DNA from: an uncultured Ignavibacteria bacterium
GTDB taxonomy: Bacteria; Zixibacteria; MSB-5A5; DSPP01
Assembly (NCBI GenBank): GCA_964607165.1
Contig: CAZSIT010000003.1
Coordinates: forward strand, 78,384-142,383
Length of the DNA: 64,000 nt
Direction: 5' to 3'
Made by a program: the position numbers and the translations under genes. The notes beneath the pieces are model-generated. The model was given only the letters and a program-made list of their open reading frames with translations, was not told the DNA's origin and did no database searches. Positions 43,162-61,144 of the stretch are shown here, piece by piece (the first letter of the stretch is position 1; each line of letters begins with the position of its first letter).

Positions 43162-43189
43162 TTGACATTTCATTTTGGTGTAGTATCTT
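43162..43189 (+). promoter_or_regulatory. Candidate promoter TTGACA-16 nt-TATCTT upstream of the porU-like operon
   Basis: Consensus -35 at 43162-43167 and -10-like TATCTT at 43184-43189. Confidence 0.4.
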
Positions 43190-43279: not shown

Positions 43280-43313
43280 CCGAAAGGGCGACAACCCCCT
43301 TTTCGGTTTTTTT
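43280..43313 (+). terminator. Terminator/attenuator-like hairpin + T8 immediately upstream of the porU-like ATG
   Basis: CCGAAAGGG-(8 nt)-CCCTTTTCGG (9 bp, one bulge) followed by TTTTTTTT, 7 nt before ATG 43321. Confidence 0.45.
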
Positions 43314-43320: not shown

Positions 43321-46300
43321 ATGAGGACGATTGTAACGATAGTAACCCTTCTTTTGGCTCCAGGGGCTTGGGCCGGGGAATATGATGATGTTGAGATTGT
43401 ACGGATGGATGATAGAGGAATAGTATTTGAGTATCGGCCGGTTGATGTTCGATTGGAATTATCGGGAGCAGCGCGTGCAAGCGATGGAGGCAGCGCCCGG
43501 CACGGCAATCTTAAATGTTTGTTTATCGACAATTGTGCCCGCACGGCGGGAGAAGGAAATTTTGATTTGCCGGTGAGAGTTGTGCTATTGGGAATTCCAG
43601 CAGATGCAAAGCCGGAAGTGAATGCTTGGGTCGATGGAGAAACTATAGTTTCAGGAGGGAGTGCCGCTGTTATTGAACAAAGTCTTCCAGGGCTTGGACA
43701 ATCGGCGTCGGAGTTTGCTTTAAAAGAAAAATCCGAGGTTGAGAAACGTGTAGCCATTGAAAATCCTTTTTGGATTGGAAACCAGCGGGTTTTAAGGATA
43801 AAGGTTTTTCCGGCGAATTATGATATTTCGACAAAGCAGTACCGTGTGGCTGGGAAATTACAGGTAGAGGTTAGATTCAACTCGTCGGGTCACCTGGCTT
43901 CAAGTTTGACGGCCAATGCTTGGGACAAAGTTTTGAAAAAGGGGTTGTTGAATTATGAGCAAGCAAAAGAATTCCGCACCGAACCGCAGGAAAGTGGGAA
44001 GCTGGCAAAAGCTATAGCGTTTTCCTCTCCTTTTGATAGTTCAACTAACTGGGTGAAGCTAACTTTTCAGGAGAACGGTATTTACAAAATTGACCGTGCG
44101 ATGCTTTCGGCTGCCGGCGTTCCAGTTTCAACCATTGGCCCACAAACATTTCGAATCTTTTCTATGGGCGGGAGAGCATTACCGGCTTTCAACAATGTAC
44201 CGAGACCGGCTTGGCAGGAGCATTCTATTGAGGTTACGGGGGAACAGGATGGAATTTTTGATACGGGAGATGAAATCCATTTCTATGGTTGGGCGGTAGT
44301 GGGGTGGGATTACGATACTCTTTCCGCAACTTTCAAGTTTGTCAAAAACAATTACACTACGAGTCAAGTGTTCTGGTTAACCTGGGGAGGGAGTTTTGGC
44401 AATGCTCCTTTAAGAATAGCCAGATCTTTCGTTGTGGGGAGTGGATCTCCGGTTACTTCTTTCCCCGCCCATTATAGGTTTGAACAGGACCGATTTTTGG
44501 CAGTAGATAGATTTTCTGAAATCAACGATTATTACACCTGGTACGGCGGGAAAGGAAATTCGCAAACTTATTTTTTTAATTTGCCTGGTTTGGTATCAAA
44601 TCCTGATACAATAATAGTTGGGCATCTCTCCGGCGGGGTTTCTTTGTTGGTTAATAATTCATTTGCGACTACCAATAATCCGATTTTGCAGCCGGCAGCA
44701 TTCATTACATCTGCTTTAAAAGCAGGTTTGAATAGAGTTGATTTGGGAGTCACGACCAATGGCAGCGGGTTAAATCATTTTGATTATCTGGAGATTTTTT
44801 ACAATCGGCTGCCGGTCTATACCCCTCCGTTTATGGAGTTCGAGACGCCGAATATCTCGGGGCTGGTTGAATTTCAGATTAGCAGCACTCCCGTAAATTT
44901 TGTGTGCTGGGGTATAAGTAATCGCTTTAGGCCGGGAGTTGTGCAAGCGACACGAAATTCTTCGGGTGTTTTGTCGTTGGTCGATGATGCTTCCATTAAA
45001 CGATCCTACATACTTACTTCTATAGCTGACTTTAAGCGGCCCACCCTTTCCCGGGAAAGCCCGGTTGACTTGATGACCGGGCCGAATCAAGGGGAGTTTG
45101 TCCTTATCGCTCCTACCTTGTTTCAGCCAGCGCTTTCGATTTATGCAGCCCATCGGGCAGACTCTAGCGGGGTAACAGTTAAGCAAGTTGACGTGGAGCA
45201 GATTTACAACAACTTTTCGGGCGGGCTGCCGGACCCGGTAGCCATTCGAGATTTCTTGAAATTTGCACGGGAGAATTGGGGAAATCCCAAACCGCGCTAC
45301 GTGCTTTTGGCTGGAGACGGGACCTACGATTTCCGAAATATAGAAGGGACGGGAGCGGTCAACTACGTGCCACCGTTTATCGTGGATCAGGCGTTTGATG
45401 CTTCCAGTAATTCGGATGAAGGGTATCTATATTTTGGCAACCCCGGCTTTCTGGATTCGGCCGACCAAACTTTGGATATGACGGTTGCCCGCTGGCCGGT
45501 GAAAAACGTTTCCGAATTGCAGGTGGTGGCCGATAAAATTATGCGCTATGAAAGTTCGCCCGAATATGGGGTATGGAGGAATCGCGTCACGCTGGTGGCT
45601 GATGATGAATTTGGAACGTTTGACAACGAAGGGTTTCATACCGCCAGCAGTGAGCAATTGGCCTCTCGGTACACTCCCAGGCGGTTCGATCAGAAAAAAA
45701 TCTATCTGTTCGATTATCCTTTTAACGGCCTTAGAGAAAAACCGGAAGCGGAACAAGCGATTTTGCGGGCTTGGAACGAAGGTCAATTGCTTATCAATTA
45801 CGTAGGTCACGGCAGCCCGAATCTTTGGGCACATGAGCATGTTTTAAAGCGGGAAGAAGATGTGCCGCAGATGGTCAATAGCAACCGGTTGCCATTAGTT
45901 TATGCTGCGTCCTGCAATATCAATTCGTTCGTTGAGCCTCTGTCGGAGGGGATGGGAGAGGATTTATTAAAAAGCCCGGCTGGCGGGGCGGTGGCTGTCA
46001 TTGCCGCCGTGCGGGTTGTTTTTGCCGGTCCGAATAACGATCTAAACGATAGTACTTTTAATTTGCTGTTAGGTTCTGACTCTCTTTCTATCGGCGAAGC
46101 CTTTTATTTGGCTAAACTGCTGCGGCAGCCGAACGGTAACGATCGCCGCTTTCTGTTGTTTGGCGACCCGGCCATGCATTTGGCCAGACCGACCTACAAC
46201 ATCTGCCTGACCGCTCCGGATACGCTTTCGGCTTTGACCGTCGCTACCGTATCGGGCGAAGTAACCGCCGGCAAAGTAACCGATACCGCTTGTACCGCCG

Positions 46301-47247
46301 GTGTTCCCTTGAGCAGCTTTAATGGAACAGTCAAGCTCTCGGTTTTTGACGGCCTGCGCTCCAAGTCCCATCCGTTAGTCCCCACGCCGCTGTCGTATTC
46401 CCTGCCGGGGAATATGATTTATCGAGGAGATGCTCAGGCAACGAATGGCCGGTTCAGCTTTTCGTTTATAGTTCCCAAAGATATAAGTTACGGTTCAAAA
46501 ACTGGGAAGATTTCGGTGTATGCCTTTGACGCAACCGGTGATGCGGTTGGATTCAAAGATTCAATGGCTTTGGGCGGCTCGGTGGCCGTTACCACCGATA
46601 CCGTTGGGCCAAAGATTTCTGTGACCGTCGTAGGCGGCGGGTCGGTGGGCGCCGGAGACGTCATTTCGGTTGGAGTCAATCTGTCGGTGAAATTGGAAGA
46701 TTCCTCCGGCATCAACATTACCGGCGAGCCGGCACATTCAATAACGGCGGAGTTTGATTTTCCATCCGGGCTAACGCTGGACATAACAAGCAGTTTTCGC
46801 TATGAGCAACGGTCGTTTTCAAGCGGGGAGGCCTTTTTCACCGTGCCGGCGGTTTCTACGGGAAGACATGCGTTGAGGATAAAAGCCTGGGATTCGGCTA
46901 ATAATTCCTCGGTTTTGGAGTTTCCGATTGAAGTAGCCGCCTCCGGAAAACTTTTGCTTTCGAATGTCTTGAACTATCCCAACCCGATGAAGGATAAAAC
47001 GAATTTTTGCTATACCCTTTCGGCGCCGGCGGATGAGGTGATGATTGAAATCTTTTCGGAAGCGGGAAGGTCAATAAAGACCATCCGTTCCGCTTCGGTG
47101 AAAGCCGGATACAATTTTCAGACCGAATGGAACGGCCGAGATAACGACGGAGACGTTGTGGCATCCGGGATTTACCTTTACAAAGTTTGGGCCAGACAGG
47201 CTTCGAAAGAAGCGGAAGAGTTTGGCAAAATCGTGGTAATGAGATGA
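43321..47247 (+). CDS. porU: C25 (gingipain-family) cysteine peptidase with T9SS-type CTD; candidate T9SS sortase PorU
   Basis: Signal peptide. ..RYVLLAGDGTYDFRN.., ..LINYVGHGSPNLWAHE.. (His) and ..LVYAASCNINSF.. (Cys). CTD is ..LNYPNPMKDKTNFCYTL..SGIYLYKVWAR..KIVVMR. About 1300 aa and directly upstream of a PorV-like gene, as porU-porV are in Porphyromonas. Confidence 0.6.
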   Translation: MRTIVTIVTLLLAPGAWAGEYDDVEIVRMDDRGIVFEYRPVDVRLELSGAARASDGGSARHGNLKCLFIDNCARTAGEGNFDLPVRVVLLGIPADAKPEVNAWVDGETIVSGGSAAVIEQSLPGLGQSASEFALKEKSEVEKRVAIENPFWIGNQRVLRIKVFPANYDISTKQYRVAGKLQVEVRFNSSGHLASSLTANAWDKVLKKGLLNYEQAKEFRTEPQESGKLAKAIAFSSPFDSSTNWVKLTFQENGIYKIDRAMLSAAGVPVSTIGPQTFRIFSMGGRALPAFNNVPRPAWQEHSIEVTGEQDGIFDTGDEIHFYGWAVVGWDYDTLSATFKFVKNNYTTSQVFWLTWGGSFGNAPLRIARSFVVGSGSPVTSFPAHYRFEQDRFLAVDRFSEINDYYTWYGGKGNSQTYFFNLPGLVSNPDTIIVGHLSGGVSLLVNNSFATTNNPILQPAAFITSALKAGLNRVDLGVTTNGSGLNHFDYLEIFYNRLPVYTPPFMEFETPNISGLVEFQISSTPVNFVCWGISNRFRPGVVQATRNSSGVLSLVDDASIKRSYILTSIADFKRPTLSRESPVDLMTGPNQGEFVLIAPTLFQPALSIYAAHRADSSGVTVKQVDVEQIYNNFSGGLPDPVAIRDFLKFARENWGNPKPRYVLLAGDGTYDFRNIEGTGAVNYVPPFIVDQAFDASSNSDEGYLYFGNPGFLDSADQTLDMTVARWPVKNVSELQVVADKIMRYESSPEYGVWRNRVTLVADDEFGTFDNEGFHTASSEQLASRYTPRRFDQKKIYLFDYPFNGLREKPEAEQAILRAWNEGQLLINYVGHGSPNLWAHEHVLKREEDVPQMVNSNRLPLVYAASCNINSFVEPLSEGMGEDLLKSPAGGAVAVIAAVRVVFAGPNNDLNDSTFNLLLGSDSLSIGEAFYLAKLLRQPNGNDRRFLLFGDPAMHLARPTYNICLTAPDTLSALTVATVSGEVTAGKVTDTACTAGVPLSSFNGTVKLSVFDGLRSKSHPLVPTPLSYSLPGNMIYRGDAQATNGRFSFSFIVPKDISYGSKTGKISVYAFDATGDAVGFKDSMALGGSVAVTTDTVGPKISVTVVGGGSVGAGDVISVGVNLSVKLEDSSGINITGEPAHSITAEFDFPSGLTLDITSSFRYEQRSFSSGEAFFTVPAVSTGRHALRIKAWDSANNSSVLEFPIEVAASGKLLLSNVLNYPNPMKDKTNFCYTLSAPADEVMIEIFSEAGRSIKTIRSASVKAGYNFQTEWNGRDNDGDVVASGIYLYKVWARQASKEAEEFGKIVVMR

Positions 47248-47281
47248 AGAAAATACAACTAACCATAATAGGGAGGTTTTA

Positions 47282-49867
47282 ATGAAAAGGGTGCTTTTCG
47301 TAGGGGCCGCTTTGGCCATTTTGTTTGCAGCCGTCCAGCCGGTTTCGGCTTCGTTGCGGCAGGCGGGAGCTCTGTCTTTGCGCATTTCCACCGGAACGCG
47401 GCCGGCTGGAATGGGTGATGCTTTTGTCGGTTTGGCGGATGATTACACGGCCACGCATTTTAATCCCGCCGGATTGGGACGGTATCCGATGAGTCCGGAC
47501 TGGATTACCCATTCGCTTCCGCCCGGGAAGGGGCCGATTCGCCAGATTGCCCTTTTGCGCAACAACGTGCCGGAACAAAATTACAAGCGCTACGACATCT
47601 GGGTTTTGGCTGGTAACGAGCTTTTGCACTGGAACGGCGTTGAGTGGGTGAGCGGGACCTATCACCAGGTGGAAGGCAGCGAGACTTTGGAGGGAATTGT
47701 TTCGCGCTGGATGAAAAATGTTTCCGACGAAAGGCTGCGAGCAGTCACCCGCCAGGTGGCGGAGGCCAACAGTCGGATTACCTATGCCGAGCTGGCCGGC
47801 CTTAAGGACAAAGTGCTGACCGCTTTGCCTCCGGATTTTGTTGATTCGGAAAAAGAGAAGTTAGCAGTTGCCTTTGATAATCTTTTGGAGCGGTTTGACA
47901 AAGGATTGGGTGTGCCGGCCGGGTTGATTTCATTGAAAACAATTGCCGTACGAGCGCTGGAAGATGAAAGAATTTCGGTGCAGGAAGCCTCTAATATCTT
48001 ATCTGTTTTAGGAAAAGCTTCTGGTAATCTCTTGCCGGATAAGGTCTTTTTGTGGTACGGTTTGGCGTTTTCCGATATGATTGAATCAATTGCTTCGGAT
48101 GAACGGGCCTTGTGGGTGGCTACGCAAACCGGCGTTGCGCGCTATGACGGCGAAAGCTGGAACAGTTTCGGCTCGGAGGAGGGGTTGCCGGAAGGGCCTT
48201 TTAGATACATGGCTGTGAGCCCGGCAAAAACCGCCTGGCTGGCGAATCAAAAAGGACTTTTCTCTTTTACCGGCGGACACTGGACGCTATCCGAAATGGC
48301 TCCCGGGGTCTCGTTCCCAGAAGGTGGTCCAAAACGGATGGTTTTTTCGGGAGAGCGGGCTGGCTGGGCAATTTGTGACAACGACCTTTTCTTTTATGAC
48401 GGAAAAAAGTGGGACAATCGTTTTGAGGTGAGCGCGGGTGTTGCGCCGGAGCTGGAAAAGCTGGTTAACCGCTTTGCGCCGGGTGTGGATTCGGCTCGAA
48501 TGGCTGACGCCATTTCAGAGATTAGAACTATCAACAACTTCGGTGATTCGGCTATTGCGCCGGGGAAGAAAATATTGGTGCCCTTTAAGCTCGCATTCCG
48601 TGGAAGGCTGACCTCTGTTGCTGTTGACCCGTTGGAAGCGGTTTGGATTGGAACGGAGACCGGGCTTTTGCGCTTTGCCGAAGGGGAGTTCAACGTATTC
48701 GGATACGCCCCCTTTACAGTTACAAAAGAAAAGACACTTTTGGAGGTAGCCAAGCGCTATACCGGCGATTCCAATCCACAACGGTTGACGCGCTGGATAG
48801 AGCGGGTGAGAAATTACAATCGGTTAACTTCCGACGAAGTGGCGCCTGGCCAGAAGATCTGGTTATACCGGGGGCCAGCGGGGAGTAAAATCAGCTCAAT
48901 TTATGCCAATACCGAAGTTGTGTGGGTTGGCTCGGAGTTCGGAATTCTGAAATTTAACAAAATAGAATTTGAACGGTACGAACCGGCGGGGTTGGCGCGA
49001 ACTCCTACGGTGGACGTGCAGTTTAAAGGAGCAGATGGCTTTTTCGCCACCGCTAATCAGGTAACCGTTTATGCCCGGCCGTGGAGGCAATTTGGTTTAA
49101 TGCATTCCAACTGGCTGCCGGATCTGGCGGAAGATTTGTTCTTTGATTCACCGGCTTACGTGCAGCATTTTTCCGGCATCGGCACCTTCGGACTGCATAT
49201 GACCTTTCTCTCTTTGGGTCGCAACACCAGAATTAGCGAAACCGGGGATACCCTCGGTTTTTTCGACAGCTTTGAGGGTTCAATTGGCCTTTCTTATGGG
49301 ACGCGTTTGTCCAATTCACTGGCGGGAGGGTTGACCGGTAAATTTATTTTGAGCAAGCTGGCCACGGTCGGCACGGCGCGGGAACTTGGAAAAGGGCAGG
49401 GAACCTCATTTGCCGTGGATTTTGGATTGCTATACCAGACTCCCATTAAAAGGCTGACATTGGGTTCGGCTTTGACCAATATCGGGCCGAGGCTCCAGTT
49501 TATTGACGCTGATCAGGCCGACCCTCTGCCGCGAAATTTGGCCGTTGGATTCTCCTACAAAATCTTGGAATCGGCTTATAACAAGCTGACCTTGTTAACG
49601 GATTTCAACCGGGATCTGGTCAGTCTGAAAACAGACCGGGGATTTTTCAAAACCTCAATCGAAAATTTTGGGATTGAGTACTGGTACGGTTCGTATTTTG
49701 CCGGCCGCGCCGGTTACGTGTATGACCCGGACGGTCAATTGAAGTATTTGACTTTGGGCACCAGCTTACAATATCGGAATTTCCGGTTTGACCTCGCCTA
49801 CATTCCTTCTTCCAAAAATTTAGCGCTGGCCAATACCTTGCGTTTAGCTTTAATTGGCAAGTTTTAA
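47282..49867 (+). CDS. porV: PorV/PorQ-family outer-membrane barrel carrying a ~550-aa insertion (propeller-like and LysM-like segments)
   Basis: N-terminus is ..ALSLRISTGTRPAGMGDAFVGLADDYTATHFNPAGLG... The C-terminal ~240 aa form a barrel ending ..RLALIGKF. The middle has repeated [FY]xGxxW segments (RYDGESWNSF, FTGGHWT, FYDGKKWDN) and ..APGQKIWLY.. / ..APGKKILVP.. LysM-like ends. Confidence 0.6.
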   Translation: MKRVLFVGAALAILFAAVQPVSASLRQAGALSLRISTGTRPAGMGDAFVGLADDYTATHFNPAGLGRYPMSPDWITHSLPPGKGPIRQIALLRNNVPEQNYKRYDIWVLAGNELLHWNGVEWVSGTYHQVEGSETLEGIVSRWMKNVSDERLRAVTRQVAEANSRITYAELAGLKDKVLTALPPDFVDSEKEKLAVAFDNLLERFDKGLGVPAGLISLKTIAVRALEDERISVQEASNILSVLGKASGNLLPDKVFLWYGLAFSDMIESIASDERALWVATQTGVARYDGESWNSFGSEEGLPEGPFRYMAVSPAKTAWLANQKGLFSFTGGHWTLSEMAPGVSFPEGGPKRMVFSGERAGWAICDNDLFFYDGKKWDNRFEVSAGVAPELEKLVNRFAPGVDSARMADAISEIRTINNFGDSAIAPGKKILVPFKLAFRGRLTSVAVDPLEAVWIGTETGLLRFAEGEFNVFGYAPFTVTKEKTLLEVAKRYTGDSNPQRLTRWIERVRNYNRLTSDEVAPGQKIWLYRGPAGSKISSIYANTEVVWVGSEFGILKFNKIEFERYEPAGLARTPTVDVQFKGADGFFATANQVTVYARPWRQFGLMHSNWLPDLAEDLFFDSPAYVQHFSGIGTFGLHMTFLSLGRNTRISETGDTLGFFDSFEGSIGLSYGTRLSNSLAGGLTGKFILSKLATVGTARELGKGQGTSFAVDFGLLYQTPIKRLTLGSALTNIGPRLQFIDADQADPLPRNLAVGFSYKILESAYNKLTLLTDFNRDLVSLKTDRGFFKTSIENFGIEYWYGSYFAGRAGYVYDPDGQLKYLTLGTSLQYRNFRFDLAYIPSSKNLALANTLRLALIGKF

Positions 49868-49874
49868 GAGGAGG

Positions 49875-52800
49875 ATGTTGATACTTACGCAAAAAGCCGG
49901 CCGATTCATTTTGAGTATCGGCTGGCTTTTGCTTCTTGTGGTGAGCGGAGTCGAACTATTTTTTTCGGCAGCCTGGGGCGCCGACTGGCCGTTAAAAAAA
50001 GTTAAGCTTGAAAAGCCGGAAGCCCCTCCTGCTGTGGGATTTCATAGTTCGGTTTCGAAGAAAAATCTTTTGAAATTGACGCGGCTGTCTCCATCTGGAT
50101 TGCCTTTCGCCCGGCTTTCGACAGCTGCGCCAGTGGAGACCTTAAAGGTTTTGGCTCTTCGGGTGGAGTTTCAGAAAGAAGTGCCGGATGACCCAAGCAC
50201 CACCGGCCTCGGGGTCTTTGACCGACGCACCAAGCAGCAGTTTTTGGCCGCCGAGGGGCATCTGGTTGACCCGGCACCGCATAATAAAAAGTATTTTGAG
50301 AGCCATCTGGAAGCCTTGGACCGGTTCTATCAAGCCGTTTCCAACGGGAGAGTGAAGGTAATCGGAGATGTCTGGCCGCCCGTGGACTCGGAGGTCTATC
50401 AGCTCCCATATCCTTTGGCCTACTATGATTTGGCAGGCTGTAACTCTAATAGTTGTGTCGTTGGGCAAATTTCCCGTTTTTTTGTGGATGCTGTGCGGCT
50501 TGCCGACATGCTCTCGCCCCAGATTGATTTTTCAAACTATCAATCGCTGGTGATCTTCCATGCCGGGAGTAGCCGGCAGGATGACATTTTCGACAACACC
50601 CGCAATGATTTTTTTACCGGATTTCTGCGGCTGGGATTTGACAGTTTGCTTGTCGACAGCAGCCGTGATACCATCACCGAAGGGTTAATTCTCCCCGAAT
50701 CTCCTTCGCAGGACAATCGAATTGTAGCGTTGAATGCGACGTTCGCGCACGAATTTGGGCATCAGCTCGGTTTGGTTGACATCTACAATACCAGAACGAA
50801 TGTGACCCAGGTCGGAGATTTCTCTTTGATGGATAATAACGGCGCCGATATTGCAGCTGAATTGGATTTCACCAGTTTGGGTGGCCGTATTGTTTTGGCC
50901 TCCCAGCTTTTGCCGGTCTATCCGGATGCCTGGTCGCGCGCTTTTTTGGGTTTTTTGGACACGCTGGTTGTCACGCGAGGCCCGGATAGTTTGTCGCTTC
51001 TGGCAGCCGAACTTCAGCACACAGGTATCGAAGCAGTAAAAATCCCGATATCCGAGCAGGAATATTTCTTAATCGAAAACCGCTCGGTCGATTTTGATTC
51101 CTTTCCCGGTTCAGCTTTGAAAGTTGATGATTCCACCAACGTGGTCTTGGGCCCGGCGCGGCCGCAGGGTGGCAGTTCGGTTTTTACGGATGAATATGAT
51201 GCACTGTTGCCCGGCTCCGGCATACTCATCTGGCACGTGGATGAAGGTGTGGCATTTCTGGATGACGACGGAGATGGTTTCAACAATTTTGAAAGCAATA
51301 CGGTTAATACAAATCCGCAGCGAAGGTTTTTAGAACTTAAGGAAGCGGACGGTTTGGTCGATTTCGGGGGGAATTACTTCACCGGCTTCGGCCTTTCCGA
51401 GGATATGTACCGGGCGGGGAACAACTCCCGTTTTACGCCGACTTCCAATCCCTCCTCGCGCAATTCTTTCGGCGGGCAGACCGGTGTCTCGGTAACTGGT
51501 ATTACCCCTGCCGACACGGTGATGAATTTTGACGTCAATTCCGGCTATTTGCTTTCCGGCTGGCCGCAGTTTACCGGGCGGTTTTCGGTCGACCGCCCCC
51601 CCGTGTTGGGGGATTTAGATGGGGATGGTAAGGAAGAGGTTTTGGCTTTCTCCGGGCCCTTTATTCTAGCCTGGAGGCAGAACGGCACGGCTTTCATTCC
51701 GAACAATTTTACAGACACTAGCAGCGCTCTAAACGGCGATAGTCTGGAGTTTCCCATCGCTATTTTCAGCTTTGACCCAACCGACACCGCCCGGGATTCA
51801 GGGTTTACTTCCGGGCCGGTGGGAGCGGACCTTCTGGGAGATTCCCTAAAAGAGGTTTTTGCCGGTTCCCGCGACGGTTTGATTTGGGGGTTTGCTGCGG
51901 AGGATTTGAACGGCGACAGCTTAGCCGATTTTCTCCCCAGTTTCCCCGTTGACTTGAACAACGGAGCGGTTACCGTCATTTTAGTTGGAAAAATTAATCC
52001 TTTCAATTCTTTGGCCATCTTTGCCGGAACGGCTGCCGGAAAGGGATTTTTGATTTCGCCGGCTGGGACGGTTCTGGATTCCAATCTTTTCCGAGGGAGA
52101 ATTGTTGGGACGGCAGTGGATACCACCGGCAATCTTTTTGTGACTTCAGCAAAAAAAGATTCTGTCTTCGTTTATCGGGGCTTTCATCCAATTTGGGCGG
52201 ATACAATTCTGGATAGTCTGATTTCCGAGCCGGTGGTAGCTGAAAGCGACAGCGCGCTTCTGCTTGCCTTTGCCACCAGTGGAGGGAAACTATATCTGTA
52301 CGACCGGAATGACAACCTGGCGCCCCGATTTCCAGTTGATTTGGGGACCGGCGCAGCGCCTCAACCGGTTTGGGTGGTCAATCCGACCGGCGGGGAGCCG
52401 ATAATTTTGCTGGCCTTTGATAATAAAATCGTGGCTTATCAAACAAACGGTATTCTTGTGGAAGATTTTCCGAAATCTATCGACAGGCAGAGGCCTGCTA
52501 ACGGTTCGCAGTTGCCGTTGGCCGGTTTAGATAGGGCAGCCTTAAGTAGGCTTTCAAGGTATGTCCCTCGCAGTTCCGTTGAAGCCAGGTCTATTCCACC
52601 ACAGGGCCCTGAAATCGTTTTGGCGGTTGGGTCGGATAACGGCAATATTTATTTTCCTCAAGCAAGTGAGAGAGAAGCCTCTTTCGCTCTTGGAACGGGA
52701 GCGGAAATTTTGGCACCGCTGGCCGCCACAACCGTAGATAGTTTGTCATCAACCATTCGGGGCGCAAAAGTTTTTGCCCGCAGCACGGATGGTTTTATGT

Positions 52801-53210: not shown

Positions 53211-53227
53211 ACGGAAAGGTTTAATAG

Positions 53228-54151
53228 ATGATTGCGAAGATTACAGAGATTGCGAAAATTGGAAAAGTTTTATTGCTGGTCATAGCCGTTTTGCCGGGAG
53301 TTTTTGGGTCGGCGGTAGCAGAGAGTTCACCAATATCGATTGAACAGCTTTATCGACACCAAACAATGTATTCAGATGGTAAGCTCCTCCAGTTTACTCA
53401 AAACGACAGACAGGAAATCGCTCCAGCCATTACTGAAAAAGGTCAAAAACAAAAATCGGTGGCGATGGCGGCGGGGCTTTCGCTTTTGGTTCCCGGAGCG
53501 GGGCAATTTTACGTCGGCGAGAAAGTACGTGCCGCCCCCTTTTTCCTGGCTGACATAGGCGGTTGGGTTACCTACTTTGGTTTCCGAAGCCAGGGTAAGA
53601 GGCGGGAACGGGATTACCAGGCTTTTGCTGATATGCATTGGGACACCAGCCGGTATTTTGCTTTTCTGGATACAGCCCTCGGGATTTCTTCCCGTTCGGA
53701 CTTTGACCCGGTTACCCGAAATTACGACAGCCACGATTACTTTCCAGATTCAGTTGCCAACTTGGTGATAGATACAATTAAAAACCCTAATTTTGTTTTC
53801 GCTCATCATATTCCGGCTAAAGAGGGCGGTCGGTTGGAAAAAAATTTCGAGTATTATGAAAACTTTGGAAAATACGACCAGTTTTTTGCCGGGTGGGACG
53901 ATTACAGTACCGGTGTCAACAGAAGCACCTATAGAAGGATGCGCGCGAAGGCCAACGATTCATTTTCCAAATCCAAGATAGGCATTATTGTTTCTATGGC
54001 CGACCGGCTGGTGGCGGCCTTTGACGCCGCTCTGGCGGCCAAGCGATTTAACAAAAAAATAAACAAGACCAACGAAATCGAGATTGGTTTTCGAATGACT
54101 CGTTACAACGGCGCGCGGATGCCGAAACTTTTGGCCACTTATAAGTTTTAA
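53228..54151 (+). CDS. Hypothetical membrane protein, paralog A (LLVPGAGQFYVG motif)
   Basis: Signal/TM region. ..AAGLSLLVPGAGQFYVGEKVRAAPFFLADIGGWVTYFGF.. and C-terminal ..RLVAAFDAALAAKRFNKK... Resembles DUF5683/TM2-like small-helix proteins. Confidence 0.7.
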   Translation: MIAKITEIAKIGKVLLLVIAVLPGVFGSAVAESSPISIEQLYRHQTMYSDGKLLQFTQNDRQEIAPAITEKGQKQKSVAMAAGLSLLVPGAGQFYVGEKVRAAPFFLADIGGWVTYFGFRSQGKRRERDYQAFADMHWDTSRYFAFLDTALGISSRSDFDPVTRNYDSHDYFPDSVANLVIDTIKNPNFVFAHHIPAKEGGRLEKNFEYYENFGKYDQFFAGWDDYSTGVNRSTYRRMRAKANDSFSKSKIGIIVSMADRLVAAFDAALAAKRFNKKINKTNEIEIGFRMTRYNGARMPKLLATYKF

Positions 54152-54152
54152 A

Positions 54153-54902
54153 ATGAGAAGGCTGGCATTGTTTTTTCTTGTTTTTTTGATTTCCCCGGGT
54201 GCTTTTTCATTGGCGGCGGGGTCGGATAAGTCTTTGATTTTTCAAAATGCTTATCCTATTCAAGCCGAGCTTGCTTCTTTTAAGCTGGACACGCTTTCGG
54301 AAAAGGAGCCCACAAATTTATCCAAGGAAAAGGGTGCTATTTCGACCTGGAAGGCGGTTGGCCTCTCGGTGTTGTTACCGGGAAGCGGGCACTGGTATTT
54401 GGGAAACCGAAATCGGGCAAAAGTTTTCTTTGGCATCGAGGCGGCAGGATGGGGAAGTTTTGCCGGGTTTTTGTGGTTTTCGAATCAGCGGGAAAAAGAT
54501 TATCAAAATTATGCCGTAGCGCGCGCGGGTGTTTATGCGCTTGGCAAGGATGAACAGTTTTGGCGGAGTCTGACTTTTTACGAAAACCGGGACGAGTATA
54601 ACAAGCTTGGGCCGATTACCAGCGCAAACAACCCCTTTTACCCCGAAGACGCCTCGTACAACTGGCAGTGGGATTCTCCCGCCTCCCAGGCGCAATACCG
54701 GCTTTTGCGGAATTCGAGCAAAACGGCTCATCGGCGGGCTATTTTTACTTTGGCTTTGCTGGGGGTTGAGCGATTAGTCGCCGCTGCAGATGCCTATCGA
54801 ATTGCTAAAAAGATTAACTCCAAGAATAAAGCCGATAACTTGGAAGTCTATTTTGAGCCGGAGCCAACCGGAGGACGGTTGGTTCTTATACGCAGTTTTT
54901 GA
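54153..54902 (+). CDS. Hypothetical membrane protein, paralog B (LLPGSGHWYLG motif)
   Basis: ..AVGLSVLLPGSGHWYLGNRNRAKVFFGIEAAGWGSFAGF.. and ..RLVAAADAYRIAKKINSK.. parallel the preceding gene. 1-nt gap to it. Confidence 0.7.
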   Translation: MRRLALFFLVFLISPGAFSLAAGSDKSLIFQNAYPIQAELASFKLDTLSEKEPTNLSKEKGAISTWKAVGLSVLLPGSGHWYLGNRNRAKVFFGIEAAGWGSFAGFLWFSNQREKDYQNYAVARAGVYALGKDEQFWRSLTFYENRDEYNKLGPITSANNPFYPEDASYNWQWDSPASQAQYRLLRNSSKTAHRRAIFTLALLGVERLVAAADAYRIAKKINSKNKADNLEVYFEPEPTGGRLVLIRSF

Positions 54903-54904
54903 GA

Positions 54905-55837
54905 ATGAAAAACCTCTCTTCGATCGCAAAAAGAAGAGGGGCAATGCTGTTGCTGCTCATTTTTCACTTTTCTTCCGTTTTATCTCAACCAAATGGCTCA
55001 AAACCCAATTTCCAGATTCGGAAAGTTGCGACCATTCAGCTTGATTTTGGAAAGGAAAAAGTATCCGGGCCGACCGATTTTAGAGTCGACCTAAACGGCA
55101 ATATTTATTTGCTGAACTACTCTTCAGGGAAGCTTTTCAGGATGGATTCAACCGGCAAATTTTTGCGCAGCGTGGCAGTTGCCAGTACTTTTTACCCAAC
55201 CGAGGTTGGCTTTACAATAAGCCGGGAGGGGGACCTTTTCATTGCCGATTCAAAGGAAAAGTTTATCTATCGTTATGATGCCGGGTTGGACTTAATTGGC
55301 AAACTACGATTGGTCGGCTCCGACCAATTTGAAAACATCTATGATTTTTTAGCCGTTTCCTGGGGAGATTTGCTTTTGAGTTGCGGGAAAAAGCCGGAGT
55401 TGTGGCGGCTGGAACCTGCCGGTAAAAGCTTCACTTTTGAAGAGGTCGGCAGTCACGAGCCGCAGTTTTACTTTTCTCTTTCAGAAATCCCAGGAAAAAA
55501 ATTGGTCGCTTATGACAATTTTAACAAGGCTCTGGTGTTTCTGGATCGGTTTGGGAATCGGGTGAAAGAAGTTCCGTCCCGACCGCTTATGAAACTGGGG
55601 GGCACGGACCTCGGCTTAATTTGCACCTCCTGGTCAGATGACAGCCTTACCATTATGGATTCCAGCGGTTATGCCGCCGTTAGCTTCACGCCGCGGCAAC
55701 TGGCTTTGGGATTTGAAAAGGTTAAAAACTTTGTGACCGTAGGAAAAAGAGTATATCTGTTGGGGGATTCGCTTAAAATTGAGGTTTTAGAGCTCTTAGA
55801 AGCCAAACCTGAAGATTCAATCCCTGGAAAAAAATGA
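54905..55837 (+). CDS. Hypothetical secreted protein, NHL/beta-propeller-like
   Basis: Signal peptide ..GAMLLLLIFHFSSVLSQP. Repeated ..G.I(Y/F)..D.. strands (NGNIYLLN, EGDLFIADS). ATG 54905 lies just after the preceding stop. Confidence 0.65.
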   Translation: MKNLSSIAKRRGAMLLLLIFHFSSVLSQPNGSKPNFQIRKVATIQLDFGKEKVSGPTDFRVDLNGNIYLLNYSSGKLFRMDSTGKFLRSVAVASTFYPTEVGFTISREGDLFIADSKEKFIYRYDAGLDLIGKLRLVGSDQFENIYDFLAVSWGDLLLSCGKKPELWRLEPAGKSFTFEEVGSHEPQFYFSLSEIPGKKLVAYDNFNKALVFLDRFGNRVKEVPSRPLMKLGGTDLGLICTSWSDDSLTIMDSSGYAAVSFTPRQLALGFEKVKNFVTVGKRVYLLGDSLKIEVLELLEAKPEDSIPGKK

Positions 55838-56373
55838 TTGAATTAGAGCCGCTGAAACGGAGCGACCTGCCGCTTTTGGCCAGCTGGGGCGGGCAGTCAG
55901 AGTTTTTGATTCAATGGGCGGGGCCGATTTTTGACCATCCTTTGGATGAAAAACAACTTGAAAAATATTTCGACGCCATGGAGGCAAGTCCAGACGCGAG
56001 AAAAATGTACAAAGCGGTCCGGGTTGGTTCGGAAGAAATGGTCGGTCACATAGAACTGGATAGAATCAATCCCAAGACCGGTTCGGCCATCGTGGAGCAC
56101 GTTATCGTAGGCGATCCGGCTATGCGGGGGAAAGGGGTTGGCGGGTTGATGATGAAAAAGATTTTGGAAGTTGGATTTGGGCAGTTGGGGCTGCACCGGA
56201 TTTCCCTTAATGTTTACGATTTCAACCATTCCGCTATCGCCTGCTATGAAAAAGCCGGTTTCATCAAAGAAGGGCTTTTGCGCGAAGCGGTTCGGGTGGG
56301 AAATCAATACTGGAGCGTTTTCTTGATGAGCGTTTTGGAGACGGAGTGGAGGAGCTTACAGGCGGCAGGGTGA
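55834..56373 (+). CDS. GNAT-family N-acetyltransferase (RimJ/RimL-like)
   Basis: ..GHIELDRINPKTGSAIVEHVIVGDPAMRGKGVGGLMMKKILEVGF..LHRISLNVYDFNHSAIACYEKAGF... ATGA overlap upstream. Confidence 0.88.
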   Translation: MIELEPLKRSDLPLLASWGGQSEFLIQWAGPIFDHPLDEKQLEKYFDAMEASPDARKMYKAVRVGSEEMVGHIELDRINPKTGSAIVEHVIVGDPAMRGKGVGGLMMKKILEVGFGQLGLHRISLNVYDFNHSAIACYEKAGFIKEGLLREAVRVGNQYWSVFLMSVLETEWRSLQAAG

Positions 56374-59300
56374 TGCTGGCAGAAGTAAAAATTCGCGGTT
56401 TTGCGATTCTTCTGGTGGTTGCGCTCTCCTGTTTTGCTTTAGTTCACTCACCGGAAGCTAAACCAGCTTTCTTTTTCGAATCGGATTTGAATATTGAAAA
56501 TTATCAAGATGCAGTAGGATTTTTTTCAGTTGCCCAAAAAACTACCGATTATCAAATCGATTACGAGTCGGGCTTTATCTCTGGGGGGGCCACAAATCTT
56601 TTGGGGGGAGGTTCGGGTAGAACTCCAATTCTTTCGCTTAACCTGTTGCCCCGCTATCAATTGCGGAGCCTTCCCGTGTCGGGAAATGAAAATCAAGTTT
56701 CAACCCTTACAACATCGCCAACTCTGCCGAAAATTCGACAACCGACGGTTAGCAAAGAAGAGTTGTTCATCTCCGGTCGGAAATCTTTTGGATTTTCCTA
56801 TTCCCCATCCGGCGAGGCTGGTTTTCAACAAAGCCTGGCGTTGGCCTTAAAGGGTAAGCTTTCCGAAAAGGTCGGTTTTGCGGCCAACTTATCCGACCGG
56901 AACCTACCTTCCGGCTCAGGCAGTTTTTCCAAACGAATAGACCAATTCGACCAGCTTGGGTTAGCATTTGACTTTCCGCAAGGGAGCTTGAGTCTTGGAG
57001 ACGTTTTCTTTAAAAGCAATTCAGGCAATTTATTGAATTTTGAGCGAAAAATTTCGGGGCTTGGTTTCGCTTTTAACGATTCCAGGGAAAGCTTGGGTGT
57101 AGCTTTTGGCTCCGGGCCGGGGGAATTTCGAACAGTCGAACTGTCCGGTCAGGAAGGAAAACAGGGGCCGTATAGTATTGCATCGAGCCGGATATTTATA
57201 ATTCCTGGAAGCGAGAAGGTTTATTTGGATGGAGAACTTTTGACATCCGGGCGGGAAGCGGATTATGAGATGGATTCCGAGCGCGGCGCCCTGACTTTTT
57301 CGCCTCGGCATCCCATAAGTAATTTCTCGCGCATACGCTTGGAGTACGAATTTCAAAGCGGGCCGTATGCCAAAAATATCTCGGCCGCGCGTTCAGCAAC
57401 CGGTTTGTTCAATAACAAGTTCAAGTTTCGCGCAGGATATCTTGGCAGCAAGGACAAGCTGGATTCTCCTCTGATGAAAAGTTTAAGCTCCGAGGAAAGG
57501 GAGCGGCTGGCAAGCACCGGGGCGGATTCATCGGAAGCGGTTAGAGATGGGGCAGTATTCGTTGGAGCCGGCAAGGGAGATTACTCGGCCTTTTTAGATT
57601 CAACGGGCAATCGGCAATACCGGTACGTCGGAAGCAGTAAAGGAGATTACAGCGTCAGTTTTTCCTTAGCTCGGGGGGGGCCGGGAGATTATCGGTATTT
57701 GGGCGGAGGGATTTACGAGTTTGTGGGCACAGGCAGAGGTTCTTACCTCCCGATTCTGTATTTACCGGTTCCTACTTCACAAACTGGGGCTAACCTAGGA
57801 ATCGAGTTTGCTCCTACCAACCTCGCTACTTTTTTAGAATTGTCTCTCGGAGAAACAAATCGAAATCTATTTTCCAGCCAAGGGGGGGTCAAGTCAAGCG
57901 GCACAGCCTTTTTGGGAGGGATTAGCTGGCAGAATTCCGATGAGCAAAGTCTGAAAGTTGAGGCAAAATTCAGAGGGCGGGAAGCGGATTATCAATTCCT
58001 CGGTAATAAAGATGAAAGCGATTTCGCCTACCGCTGGAATCTTTCTCTCTCGGAGGAGCGATTAGGTCAAACCCAAGGGGTAGTTTCGATGACGTCCAAA
58101 TGGAGTTGGGGCCAAAGCTGGTTGAATTTGGGGGGGCTTTCACTTTCGAATCAAAAGCAGAGAGGATTGGGAGAATCGGAATTCTTGTTATCTCCTTTGA
58201 CCTGGCTTGCGTTCAAAACCGAAACGCAAGTTGGAGGTTCAGGTTCCCGGTCCGGTTTTTATCGAACAAAGAATTCGGTAACCCTCCGTTGGGGAAACCT
58301 TGCCTTATCATCGGCCATCGAGCGCGAGCGGGCCTATCCTTATCTTGGGAGCAACTTTGAAATTAGACAGAGCCTAGGCCAGCGGTTGGAATATAAAACC
58401 TATTTTTTGGAAGCTTCACTTGGAAACAGGGATGGATATGGGAATTCAATCAATTCCGCTGGAACGAGTAGTCGAAACTGGGGACGATTATCCCGTTTTA
58501 ACGCAATTCGTTTGGGGAGCAAGCCGGTCAGTTGGAAAGGCAAATTTACCAGCGAAGGGAATTTGGGTTGGAGGCAAACCACTTTGGAGAGCAAAAAAAT
58601 TAATCGACTCTATCTTTTTTTAAAGCAAAGCTATCAAGAAGGAGGGTGGAGAGTAAACTATTCACAAGAACTGATGCCAATTCAGTCCCCAAATGAAATT
58701 TATTCTTACCTGGATGTCGGTCGTGGCAACGGCAACTATCGATATGAAAATGGCGGATACGTTTCCGACCCATACGGCAATTTTACTTTAGTTTCGGAGG
58801 CGGCGGGTGAGACTTTGGCCGTTTCGCGAACGAGGCAGAATTGGGAGGTAGTCTGGGAACCGTATCGTAATTTTGCTTCTACTCCTACTTTCTGGTCGCA
58901 GGTTTCGTACAGGGCATTATTTAGCTTTGATGGAAACTTCAGTAAGACTATGGGAGCTGTTAATATCTTTCCAGTCTTTGGTATTAAAAATAGCCGCCGG
59001 CACGAATTAGAATTTCGCCAAACCGCAAGTTATTTGCCGATATCGCGCAAGCTTAGAATCGATTTTTCTTGGACTGAAAAAAGCAGCAAGCGGAGCTATT
59101 CGGCTTTTAGTGCCAGTTTGCCTTTATCTTCTACCGGCACCCTTAGAAGCGAACGCAGGGTCGAATTGAATAGCTCGCTATATGGGCAGAAAATTACGCA
59201 AAATTACAGCCTTGGTTATCTGAAAAAAAATTCCGGTTCAGATTTTTGGTTGCCTTACCAAATACAAGGGGGAGATATTAAATGCGAATGGTTGTATTCC

Positions 59301-59645
59301 TTCAACCGCACCGTTACCACTTCTTGCGGGGGCCGATTTTATCAGGATAAAGAGCGAATTAGTGGAAAACAAGCCCGTTTGGTTTCCGCTTCTCCCAAGC
59401 TAATTATCTCACTTCCCGAAAAAGGGAGGGCGGAAGCTGGAATTTCTGTCGCCTCTGTTTCCGGCAATCCTGTTTCCTTTGAACAGGCGGAAGGAAATTT
59501 GAAGGGATTGAATTGGGACTATAACTTGACTTTTGATTACCGTTTGGGGTCAAAAGTTTCGGCTTCCTTATCGTATGTTGCCAGCCAGAGGCCGGTTTTG
59601 GGTAAAAGCCAGCGAGCCAACACCCATTTGAGCTATCTTTTCTAA
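56373..59645 (+). CDS. Large (~1090 aa) hypothetical outer-membrane protein
   Basis: ATG 56373 gives signal MLAEVKIRGFAILLVVALSCFALVHS. Beta-rich and Gly/Ser/Tyr-rich throughout. C-terminus ..NTHLSYLF has the OMP-type terminal Phe. TGATG and TAATG overlaps with the neighbours. Confidence 0.7.
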   Translation: MLAEVKIRGFAILLVVALSCFALVHSPEAKPAFFFESDLNIENYQDAVGFFSVAQKTTDYQIDYESGFISGGATNLLGGGSGRTPILSLNLLPRYQLRSLPVSGNENQVSTLTTSPTLPKIRQPTVSKEELFISGRKSFGFSYSPSGEAGFQQSLALALKGKLSEKVGFAANLSDRNLPSGSGSFSKRIDQFDQLGLAFDFPQGSLSLGDVFFKSNSGNLLNFERKISGLGFAFNDSRESLGVAFGSGPGEFRTVELSGQEGKQGPYSIASSRIFIIPGSEKVYLDGELLTSGREADYEMDSERGALTFSPRHPISNFSRIRLEYEFQSGPYAKNISAARSATGLFNNKFKFRAGYLGSKDKLDSPLMKSLSSEERERLASTGADSSEAVRDGAVFVGAGKGDYSAFLDSTGNRQYRYVGSSKGDYSVSFSLARGGPGDYRYLGGGIYEFVGTGRGSYLPILYLPVPTSQTGANLGIEFAPTNLATFLELSLGETNRNLFSSQGGVKSSGTAFLGGISWQNSDEQSLKVEAKFRGREADYQFLGNKDESDFAYRWNLSLSEERLGQTQGVVSMTSKWSWGQSWLNLGGLSLSNQKQRGLGESEFLLSPLTWLAFKTETQVGGSGSRSGFYRTKNSVTLRWGNLALSSAIERERAYPYLGSNFEIRQSLGQRLEYKTYFLEASLGNRDGYGNSINSAGTSSRNWGRLSRFNAIRLGSKPVSWKGKFTSEGNLGWRQTTLESKKINRLYLFLKQSYQEGGWRVNYSQELMPIQSPNEIYSYLDVGRGNGNYRYENGGYVSDPYGNFTLVSEAAGETLAVSRTRQNWEVVWEPYRNFASTPTFWSQVSYRALFSFDGNFSKTMGAVNIFPVFGIKNSRRHELEFRQTASYLPISRKLRIDFSWTEKSSKRSYSAFSASLPLSSTGTLRSERRVELNSSLYGQKITQNYSLGYLKKNSGSDFWLPYQIQGGDIKCEWLYSFNRTVTTSCGGRFYQDKERISGKQARLVSASPKLIISLPEKGRAEAGISVASVSGNPVSFEQAEGNLKGLNWDYNLTFDYRLGSKVSASLSYVASQRPVLGKSQRANTHLSYLF

Positions 59646-61144
59646 TGATTAAAAAAGTGTTTATACCTGGTTCTTTTATTTTTGGAATTTGCTTGCACGT
59701 TGTCTCCGGGAGCGAAATGTCCATCGGGTCACCCGATTCCTCACTGATTCTCAAGGAAGTAGGTTCAGTTCAAAGCGATTCCACTTTTGAGCATTGGAAA
59801 AGAAACTCACTTGAGCAATGGGCTGGAAAGCCGGCAACCAGGGAAAATGTAGAGACTCTTATTGATGAGCTATTGCATTTTTATTCCCAGAGAGGTTTTC
59901 CATTTGCCGAAGTTACTCCTTCGGTCACAAAGAGCGGTGACAACTGGGCTGAACTGCGGCTTTCAATAATTACCGGGCCGGAAGTTTATATCTCCCAGCT
60001 TGGTTTTGCCGGTTTCTCTTCAGGGGAGCAAAAACAGTTGTCACGGATGCTGGATTTTTATCCCGGTGTTTTTGATGAGCGGGAAATTGATGATTGGAAA
60101 AGACAGCTCGAACGCTATCCCCAATTTGCCTGGAAAGGAGAAACCAAAATCGTTCCCGTTCCGGATTTTTCTTCAAGCCGGCTGGAAGCGCCCGTGGTGC
60201 GGAAGGAAAAGAACAAAGTAGAAGGAGGATTGGGTTATTTGCCATCCAATTCCGAAAAAGGCCCATTCGGAGACCTTTCCATCCGGCTGGTCACCCTGGG
60301 GAAAATCGGGCGGGAGGTTAGTTTTGATTGGCGAAAACCGAATTCCGGCTCGCGGCTCTTGTCGGTCGGGTACCAGGATTTCTTCCTGTCTCCATCTCCA
60401 TTTTATGTTTTGGCGAATATTGGAGAAGAAGAGAAGGAAAATCGATATTTTAAATTTTCTGCCGGCGGCGAAATTTCAGCGGTTTTGACGAGCCGATGGA
60501 AGTGGGGCTTGGGTTTCAGCTACGAAAAAATCACCCCCCGGTTTGAAAGCGGCATACAAGACTCGAGTTATCCAGCGCGTCAGTATTCTTTCGCAGGGAA
60601 ATTGGAGTTAGGGAAAAGTTCTTTAGCTTCCGAAGGGCTATTTTTGAGCGCTGGCGGCCGGATTGCTCAAAAAAAGGTTTTTTCTCCTATCGGACCAAAA
60701 AGCGGGATGCCCGCAAGGTTGGAATTGCAAGCGGCCGGGGCCGTGAAGCTTTCGGGAAGTTGGAGGCTGTATCTGGAGGGAAAAGGAAAGGCGCTTTTTA
60801 TTCCTTCTTTTCTTTTTACCCCTTCAGATTTGTTCTATTTGGGAGGGTTTGGCACCTTGCGCGGCTATCCCGATGAAAGCTTGGTGGCCACTCGTTACTT
60901 GCTTGGACGGGCAGAGCCCCGGTTTTATTTTGGTACCGACAATTTTTTGTTCGGATTTTTTGACTATGGGTACTTGTCGGTTGCCAAAAACTTACCCGGA
61001 GTTTTAGCTTCCAATAGATTTAAACTGTCCAGAGGCCTGGGGATTTCGGCCGGTAGCGGTCGTTTGATTCTCGCTTTTGGATGGAGTGAAAAGGCGAAAT
61101 TGAAGGATGGAATGGTCTACGTTCGTTTGTCGGGTGAACTGTAG
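59645..61144 (+). CDS. Omp85/BamA-family protein (POTRA + surface-antigen barrel)
   Basis: POTRA-like ..ENVETLIDELLHFYSQRGFPFAEVTP... Barrel motif ..DLFYLGGFGTLRGYPDESL... Confidence 0.85.
   Translation: MIKKVFIPGSFIFGICLHVVSGSEMSIGSPDSSLILKEVGSVQSDSTFEHWKRNSLEQWAGKPATRENVETLIDELLHFYSQRGFPFAEVTPSVTKSGDNWAELRLSIITGPEVYISQLGFAGFSSGEQKQLSRMLDFYPGVFDEREIDDWKRQLERYPQFAWKGETKIVPVPDFSSSRLEAPVVRKEKNKVEGGLGYLPSNSEKGPFGDLSIRLVTLGKIGREVSFDWRKPNSGSRLLSVGYQDFFLSPSPFYVLANIGEEEKENRYFKFSAGGEISAVLTSRWKWGLGFSYEKITPRFESGIQDSSYPARQYSFAGKLELGKSSLASEGLFLSAGGRIAQKKVFSPIGPKSGMPARLELQAAGAVKLSGSWRLYLEGKGKALFIPSFLFTPSDLFYLGGFGTLRGYPDESLVATRYLLGRAEPRFYFGTDNFLFGFFDYGYLSVAKNLPGVLASNRFKLSRGLGISAGSGRLILAFGWSEKAKLKDGMVYVRLSGEL

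Follow-up and report, generated by a model that had tools for sequence, protein, structure and literature searches.

We examined a run of nine co-directional genes in a 64-kb stretch of contig CAZSIT010000003.1 (hereafter the window, meaning the whole stretch of DNA that was analysed) that links PorU and a PorV-family barrel, both of the T9SS (type IX secretion system), to several membrane and outer-membrane proteins, among them a very large protein predicted to form a giant β-barrel. Judged from gene order and from the protein sequences of its relatives, the run is a genuine envelope operon that selection has kept together, and it belongs to a Zixibacteria-like bacterium. Its genes, numbered g1 to g9, are as follows (lengths in amino acids, aa; CTD, C-terminal domain):

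g1, 43321..47247, + strand: PorU, the C25-type sortase of the T9SS, 1308 aa; it starts with a signal peptide and ends in an immunoglobulin (Ig)-like CTD.
g2, 47282..49867, + strand: PorV-family barrel of the 14-strand type, 861 aa, from NCBIfam and Pfam matches.
g3, 49875..53210, + strand: M6-like zinc metalloprotease, 1111 aa, bearing a type A CTD of the T9SS, from hidden Markov model matches and an HEFGH motif.
g4, 53228..54151, + strand: 307-aa DUF5683-like protein that has a signal peptide and a helical hairpin bearing an S...PG.G..Y motif and an acidic residue, and whose C-terminal β-hairpin ends in Phe.
g5, 54153..54902, + strand: paralogue of g4, 249 aa (BLASTP of g4 against g5, E = 9e-18).
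g6, 54905..55837, + strand: secreted NHL-repeat β-propeller, 310 aa, from phmmer matches in the PDB and from Pfam.
g7, 55834..56373, + strand: GNAT N-acetyltransferase, 179 aa, without a signal peptide, above Pfam cut-offs.
g8, 56373..59645, + strand: large outer-membrane protein, predicted giant β-barrel, 1090 aa, from its signal peptide, C-terminal Phe and AlphaFold2 model.
g9, 59645..61144, + strand: Omp85-superfamily protein with POTRA, 499 aa, from Pfam and NCBIfam matches.

The open reading frame (ORF) listing and a direct reading of the junctions place all nine ORFs on the + strand between 43321 and 61144, with exactly the gaps and overlaps that an earlier note on this DNA had claimed. 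There are 34 nucleotides (nt) between the g1 stop (47247) and the g2 ATG (47282), 7 nt between the g2 stop (49867) and the g3 ATG (49875), 5′ of which lies GAGGAGG, and 17 nt between the g3 stop (53210) and the g4 ATG (53228), while 1 nt separates g4 from g5 and 2 nt separate g5 from g6 (ATG 54905). The remaining junctions overlap: g6 and g7 share ATGA (55834-55837), the g7/g8 junction reads TGATG (g8 ATG 56373), and the g8/g9 junction reads TAATG (g9 ATG 59645). The + strand holds most genes of the window, so that co-directionality alone is weak evidence. The protein identities that had been proposed from the letters alone were likewise borne out in outline, namely the PorU-like and PorV-like pair, the CTD of g3, the paralogy of g4 and g5, the propeller, the GNAT, the large outer-membrane protein and the Omp85.

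To place the cluster among its relatives, 185,579 species genomes were scanned with a 13-sequence alignment of g8, yielding at least 556 relatives; the 80 best loci were retained, and contig look-ups added more. These loci (given L numbers below) were compared by tblastn and iterated profile searches with the nine window proteins, together with ORF listing. Eight of the nine window genes occurred in the order g1-g2-g3-g4-g5-g6-g8-g9 in about 30 loci, with a propeller gene of ~320 aa, with identities to the window proteins of mostly 22-35%, and with junctions that remain short or overlapping. Carriers of the order include at least 12 Zixibacteria, several metagenome-assembled genomes (MAGs) labelled Ignavibacteria, the Eisenbacteria loci L028, L040, L046, L069 and L083, a Gemmatimonadales genome (L085), TA06 (L087), two further MAGs (L035 and L075), and the metagenome contigs L001, L094 and L095. 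The nearest species-level genome is the Zixibacteria MAG L009, in which g8 is 60% identical and the other proteins 51-80%, in keeping with the proposal of a T9SS-like system outside Bacteroidota. The same order across phyla at such identities indicates that the adjacency is not fortuitous, and its retention over several uncultured phyla makes it likely that the genes work together. The earlier note had named a breakdown of the order immediately outside this one assembly as the sign of chance adjacency; the order instead holds across phyla, for eight of the nine genes, with the GNAT shared by L089 only. Some MAGs bearing g8 or the cluster (L012, L021, L027, L031, L045 and L064) are titled Ignavibacteria, Ectothiorhodospiraceae, Syntrophomonadaceae or even "archaeon"; the probable source of these odd labels is loose classification, or contamination of bins, and taxon counts based on titles need caution.

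The downstream part of the cluster also recurs by itself. The genes g6, g8 and g9 were found together without PorU or PorV within ~9 kb in KSB1 (L043 and L048), in the Zixibacteria MAG L020, and in L023-L025, L039, L059 and L064, and an NHL-g8 pair lies amid housekeeping genes in L093. The recurrence of g6-g8-g9 and of g6-g8 apart from the upstream genes argues that these three function together. By this comparison of sequences and gene orders, the operon joins, in a conserved fusion, the attachment module of a T9SS (module A, g1-g5) and an older outer-membrane triad (module B, g6, g8 and g9). The single expanded module that had been proposed therefore stands as a conserved operon, made up however of two separable modules, and that they operate as one machine is our reading of it.

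Within module A, g1 scored 680.9 bits against the NCBIfam T9SS_sortase model NF033707 (cut-off 420), with residues 240-1306 aligned to profile positions 3-1094 of 1095, and matched Pfam Peptidase_C25 at E = 1.7e-84 and FlgD_ig at 42 bits; the motifs VGHGS and ASCN were assigned by eye as the His/Cys dyad. On these profile matches g1 is a bona fide PorU, and because it exceeds the PorU equivalog cut-off, the locus is probably the organism's main PorU/PorV locus rather than the "alternative" system previously suggested. The adjoining g2 reached 199.5 bits against the PorV/PorQ subfamily model NF033709 (cut-off 90) and 48.4 against Pfam PorV (cut-off 27), but only 151 bits against the PorV equivalog NF033710 (cut-off 250), probably because the match is split by an insertion of ~535 aa that directly follows the N-terminal segment (aa 66-601; about 47477-49084 in the window). 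Residues 1-65 and 602-861 of g2 align to both ends of the 373-392-aa PorV-bearing ORFs of L085 and L035. The insertion is carried by Zixibacteria-labelled loci, Ignavibacteria-labelled relatives and related metagenome contigs (PorV of 857-981 aa), and is not present in the PorV ORFs of Eisenbacteria, Gemmatimonadales and TA06 (324-391 aa). A search with it against PDB sequences gave nothing usable; a weak LysM/YneA-like stretch within it (aa 475-528) raises the idea that it might tether PorV to peptidoglycan.

The closest known counterpart of this module is the PorU-PorV (PorQ, PorZ) attachment complex of Porphyromonas gingivalis and Flavobacterium johnsoniae, in which, as here, a C25-type PorU ending in an Ig-like CTD adjoins a PorV-family barrel and the cargo bears a type A CTD. 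Unlike that complex, the present cluster belongs to a Zixibacteria-like host, carries the 535-aa PorV insertion, has no PorQ or PorZ, and includes six more conserved operon genes that are not in T9SS component reviews; one such review makes no mention of Omp85, BamA, NHL or a propeller (PMC10202324). A similar trio of PorU-, PorV- and M6-like CTD proteins is described by the NCBIfam models PorU2 (NF052324), PorV2 (NF052325) and T9SS-dependent M6-like inactivated metalloprotease (NF052323), which we take to form one cassette from their consecutive accessions and names. In contrast to that cassette, g1 is a canonical PorU (681 bits) that scores only 132 against PorU2 (cut-off 450), g2 barely touches the PorV2 model, and g3, which matches NF052323 over its N-terminal half at 267 bits, lies below that model's cut-off and has an intact HExxH. 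No account of a T9SS in Zixibacteria, or of this cluster, was found in the literature searched.

The CTD of g3, at residues 1033-1104, is above the cut-offs of both TIGR04183 (32.2 against 23) and Pfam Por_Secre_tail PF18962 (33.5 against 27). For the catalytic part, the scores were below all three M6 cut-offs (PF05547 Peptidase_M6, 21.5 against 22; TIGR03296, 71.8 against 110.8; NF052323, 267 against 600), and we accordingly describe g3 as M6-like by sequence, not as a certified member of the M6 family. The zinc site HExxH is present as HEFGH at aa 292, and of the 28 orthologous g3 ORFs that span this region, 24 retain the motif AHEFGHQLGL.DLYNT; by this sequence criterion the protease is probably active. 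Its CTD agrees with the label "likely cargo" given to it earlier, whereas the conserved HExxH shows that g3 has a functional place in the cluster and is not incidental cargo. The gene is gone from a few loci (L035 and L040), and FG-GAP matches were found in the g3 orthologues of L001 and L094 but not in the g3 of the window. A reading of g3 as PorZ was set aside on sequence grounds, as the PorZ model matches only the CTD of g1, though g3 could still act in a PorZ-like way.

The paralogues g4 and g5 distantly resemble Pfam DUF5683 (PF18935), for which g4 scored 17 bits, under the cut-off of 26.7, and g5 gave no match; precomputed matches show that six homologues carry it. The AlphaFold2 model of g4 (predicted local distance difference test, pLDDT, 73) is helical with a terminal β-hairpin. 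Among the 60 g4/g5 family members in the loci, 56 have the pattern S...PG.G..Y followed by an acidic residue in the second hydrophobic helix ([DE]xx.W), and 47 end in Phe. The conserved acidic residue could be a membrane-embedded carboxylate and recalls ion-coupled stator proteins, and the terminal Phe hairpin could recall outer-membrane β-signals; as far as sequence patterns can tell, the two features point to different membranes. Genes like g4 also adjoin PorV or CTD-cargo genes in the unrelated contigs L005 and L007. On the latter, a Joint Genome Institute marine metagenome contig, positions 1833-11865 hold another cluster of related theme, which encodes in order a PorV of 636 aa, a CTD protein of 960 aa, a 1089-aa protein with faint Peptidase_MA_2/PD40 matches, a g4-like protein of 361 aa and BamD/YfiO.

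The most conspicuous member of module B is g8, which gave no match to Pfam or NCBIfam; indeed no Pfam model covers its family. An exhaustive profile search (E up to 1e-3) found 5,611 representative clusters at 50% identity, 2,859 of them with E up to 1e-30, and nearly all of the best 150 clusters listed were matched over their full length, about 1,080-1,270 aa. The AlphaFold2 model of g8, built from a 35-sequence alignment (pLDDT 76; predicted template-modelling score, pTM, 0.65), consists nearly entirely of long β-strands from aa 131 to 1089, about 38-41 in number, with two small inserted domains at about residues 260-330 and 370-465, and g8 is thus predicted to be a giant barrel. When the model was compared with the PDB by Foldseek, as the earlier note had recommended for the uncharacterised proteins, it retrieved barrels only, with SprA as a weak best match (query-normalised template-modelling score, TM-score, 0.33-0.35) and other barrels of 22-26 strands, such as TonB-dependent receptors and ushers, at 0.12-0.23.

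Among known systems, the nearest to g8 is the SprA/Sov translocon with PorV, Plug and PPI. Like SprA, g8 would be a very large single-chain outer-membrane barrel and is genetically linked to PorV, its conserved soluble partner g6 could act in a plug-like manner, and the g8 family shares with SprA/Sov a domain of ~70-100 aa. This domain, an insert domain of g8 with the pattern GxEGxQGPY...VYLDGELL.RG..DY.IDY..G.ITF, is the region through which the Sov/SprA model TIGR04189 matches 20 of 35 family members (best E = 5.4e-9). In contrast to SprA (~2300-2500 aa; at 36 strands the largest known single-chain outer-membrane barrel, PMC9127263), g8 with its 1090 aa is half as long and has no SprA_N. Searches of family members with Pfam at E up to 10 found no SprA_N; the g8-family profile found only weak OmpG-like barrels and no SprA among PDB sequences; a large protein search with the insert-domain profile returned only 100-200-aa fragments of the g8 family and no full-length SprA; and looking for a second insert-domain match or an ORF >1800 aa revealed no SprA-like gene in 91 sequences (the loci and the window, 1.5 Mb). 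We therefore rejected membership of g8 in the SprA family, in view of scores below 200 bits, a match confined to a single domain and half the length of SprA, and since the family also occurs in Bacteroidota, where a canonical SprA is expected, g8 would be at most a distant SprA paralogue. The UniRef name "Cell surface protein SprA" of one family member was dismissed as an unsupported lead, that protein having no SprA_N match. Two other assignments were also set aside: a TamA/TamB-like one, as g8 is by prediction all barrel with no DUF490 domain, and LptD, as an OstA/LptD domain is lacking and the predicted strands are too numerous.

By phmmer against the PDB, g6 matched the NHL domains of TRIM3 and TRIM2 in two stretches (E = 4.7e-9 for the TRIM3 NHL domain, 7qrw); it matched Pfam SGL at E = 0.008, and NHL (PF01436) is found in its positional orthologues. 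For g9, the POTRA model PF07244 scored 25.5 (cut-off 21.3), Omp85 PF01103 scored 17.1, under its cut-off of 24, and the BamA model matched at E = 3.6e-9 over profile positions 273-632, far below cut-off; the g9 orthologues of L001 and L094 match PF01103 confidently, while a search of g9 against PDB sequences gave nothing usable. Besides Omp85, the orthologue in L094 (13405-15072) has a confident match to ShlB, of the two-partner-secretion (TPS) transporter family. This match suggests that TpsB-type transporters may be nearer kin of g9 than BamA or TamA are. As with TamA and TpsB (FhaC/ShlB), an Omp85 protein with POTRA (500-590 aa) is here encoded immediately behind the gene of a large outer-membrane protein, which its own gene overlaps; unlike the partners of those proteins, g8 is itself a predicted barrel and not a periplasmic β-taco as in TamB or a β-helix as in TpsA, and no TPS or DUF490 domain was found.

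The remaining gene, g7, is a clear GNAT (56.5 against a cut-off of 25.4 for Acetyltransf_3, and 55.5 against 20.7 for Acetyltransf_1) whose best equivalog match is PseH-like but weak (60.6 bits, cut-off 93), and it reached no equivalog cut-off. It was found only in the window and its nearest relative L089 (g8 80% identical), and neither in L009 and L090 (g8 58-60% identity) nor in any other locus compared. This restriction marks the GNAT as a recent lineage-specific insertion, a passenger in the operon, and not as the module member that it had been thought to be. The g7 gene overlaps both of its neighbours; a cytoplasmic-type enzyme has here newly entered an envelope operon.

On either side, the operon is clearly bounded by a divergent regulator and a 372-nt intergenic region upstream of g1 and by a convergent 128-aa ORF (61145-61531) that abuts the g9 stop. 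Two upstream features were recorded:

42589-42948, - strand: ArsR-family regulator, upstream of the operon and divergent to porU.
43162..43189, + strand: best sigma-70-like promoter match, TTGACA-16-TATCTT, 10/12 consensus positions, a candidate only.

The divergent position of the ArsR-family gene means that an ArsR-type protein could regulate the operon. Promoter-like sites in the 372-nt region are not more numerous than in shuffled sequence. Between the candidate promoter and the porU ATG lies a terminator-like hairpin, GAAAGGG...CCCCTTTT, with a T-run (43282-43312), which may serve as an attenuator or leader element or mark where a small unannotated transcript ends; neither the window nor the porU leader, hairpin included, gave an Rfam family, and there are no tRNAs in the window. 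A 140-aa ORF without a family match (42278-42700, + strand) runs opposite to the ArsR-family gene and overlaps it in its 3′ part, and of this pair probably only the regulator is real. Downstream of g9, a gene of 277-284 aa follows on the same strand in many loci of Zixibacteria type, namely L001, L010, L018, L021, L027, L041, L051, L074 and L084; that of L001 is UbiA-family by Pfam, and in the window, L089 and L090 the gene is missing and replaced by the convergent 128-aa ORF. The window opens with a ribosomal-protein/SecY/RpoA cluster, which indicates that it is chromosomal. More secreted proteins lie nearby at 37151-38947, 26408-29467 and 23227-24843 (minus strand), respectively a subtilase of family S8 whose CTD is weak, another M6 protease (HEAGH), which has a BACON domain, and a protein with Big_9 and dockerin domains. 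As far as sequence matches indicate, this region is rich in hydrolases that are likely secreted or at the surface.

In the T9SS of Bacteroidota, CTD cargo passes through SprA, then to PorV, and is then processed by PorU at the attachment complex, PorV being a known partner of SprA (PMC10994853, PMC10202324). The best explanation of the operon as a whole, to which we assign a probability of about 50%, is that module A is coupled to g8 as conduit or platform, with g9 as its insertase and g6 as its plug. Under this explanation, CTD proteins exported by Sec would cross or dock at the outer membrane via a PorV-associated channel; PorV would grip the cargo CTD, and PorU would cleave and attach the cargo, as is established for the T9SS of Bacteroidota. 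The PorV-partnered outer-membrane conduit or platform would be g8, in a role like that of SprA in these phyla, g9 would serve as its dedicated Omp85 insertase or partner, the periplasmic propeller g6 may be its plug or gate-keeper, and g4 and g5 may be membrane adaptors serving the conserved cargo g3. These roles of g4, g5, g6, g8 and g9, like physical contact between the two modules, are what we infer from the cluster.

Several observations weigh against this coupling. The best TM-score of g8 against SprA lies under the usual same-fold level. The TIGR04189 matches span only positions 588-691 of the 2319 of the profile, at ≤34 bits (33.8) against a cut-off of 200, the g8 of the window itself has no such match, the insert domain also matches a phage distal-tail family, and a profile of this domain finds no SprA/Sov chain among PDB sequences. 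For g4, Foldseek with the AlphaFold2 model gave no PDB match at E < 1. Members of the g8 family stand alone in Ignavibacteria, Cloacimonadota and Bacteroidota, and in Ignavibacteria, Bacteroidota and marine contigs g8 lies next to housekeeping genes without porUV; the cultured Flavihumibacter (Bacteroidota), which presumably has a canonical SprA, also carries g8 (WP_239595637.1 of F. cheonanensis, a stand-alone g8). The family may therefore have had an ancestral role other than T9SS transport. Finally, no other T9SS core gene was found in the scanned parts of the 64-kb window.

A bolder form of the coupled explanation is that the g8 family represents either another class of T9SS-type outer-membrane translocon, half as long as the first, or an ancestral form of SprA, the operon then being a largely self-contained secretion-attachment machine of Zixibacteria, Eisenbacteria, Gemmatimonadales and TA06. 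Its parts would be a channel (g8) with plug (g6) and insertase (g9), PorV as shuttle, PorU as sortase, and the membrane pair g4/g5, in which the conserved buried acidic residue would be a hint of ion coupling. Both the new translocon class and this complete parts list we consider doubtful.

Among the rival explanations, the one that survives best is that two independent envelope modules are merely co-transcribed, g6-g8-g9 being a general outer-membrane module of the Fibrobacteres-Chlorobi-Bacteroidetes (FCB) group without a type IX role, such as a large channel for solutes or polymers that an Omp85 factor of its own assembles. In its favour, KSB1, one Zixibacteria MAG and others have the triad with neither PorU nor PorV within ~9 kb; so speak the solitary g8 genes beside ribosomal, DsbD, ExbBD or YkuD genes and the failure of g8 to qualify for the SprA family on any count. 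Against it, the fused order persists at 22-35% identity in at least four named lineages of phylum rank, where the junctions between g5, g6 and g8 are short or overlapping, and the order of functionally unrelated genes seldom outlasts such divergence; moreover, the g8 family was found only in FCB-labelled phyla, the group that holds the T9SS, except for a few oddly labelled MAGs. On balance we regard two independent modules as somewhat unlikely, although a stronger contender than any other rival.

We judge it quite improbable that g8, g6 and g9 export a glycolipid anchor, with the barrel and its propeller plug delivering anionic lipopolysaccharide or another anchor for PorU and so filling the delivery role of PorZ/PorQ in Porphyromonas. 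The cluster is without a PorZ or PorQ homologue, while PorU requires an acceptor (PMC10202324, PMC12365241), and a sugar-type GNAT (the weak PseH-like match) is inserted exactly here in the closest lineage, but the GNAT is not in other clusters. A barrel with a conserved soluble partner would also recall LptD-LptE by analogy. LptD pairs with LptE and forms a barrel of 26 strands, far below the strand number predicted for g8, and no OstA/LptD or lipid-transport domain was found in g8 and 35 family members. As for a fortuitous adjacency of porU and porV or an assembly artefact, to which the mostly + strand genes of the window lend some colour, it is refuted by the eight-gene order, which about 30 independent assemblies share although they come from different studies and different phyla.

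The T9SS has been studied nearly only in Bacteroidota, and a recent review calls CTD proteins restricted to that phylum (PMC10202324); here PorU, a PorV-family barrel and CTD cargo occur in a Zixibacteria-like genome. While PorU/PorV attachment itself was already known, the new element is the uncharacterised g8 family, whose members are predicted by modelling to form giant barrels, and if the model of g8 is right, its ~40 strands would be at least as many as SprA has, namely 36 (PMC9127263). The operon, found across phyla, ties PorU and PorV to proteins outside any T9SS component list, with g4 and g5 as candidates for what DUF5683-type proteins do and the dedicated Omp85 alongside g8 as a candidate for how giant barrels get assembled. 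The cluster thus offers testable candidates for how cargo crosses, and is anchored at, the outer membrane outside Bacteroidota.

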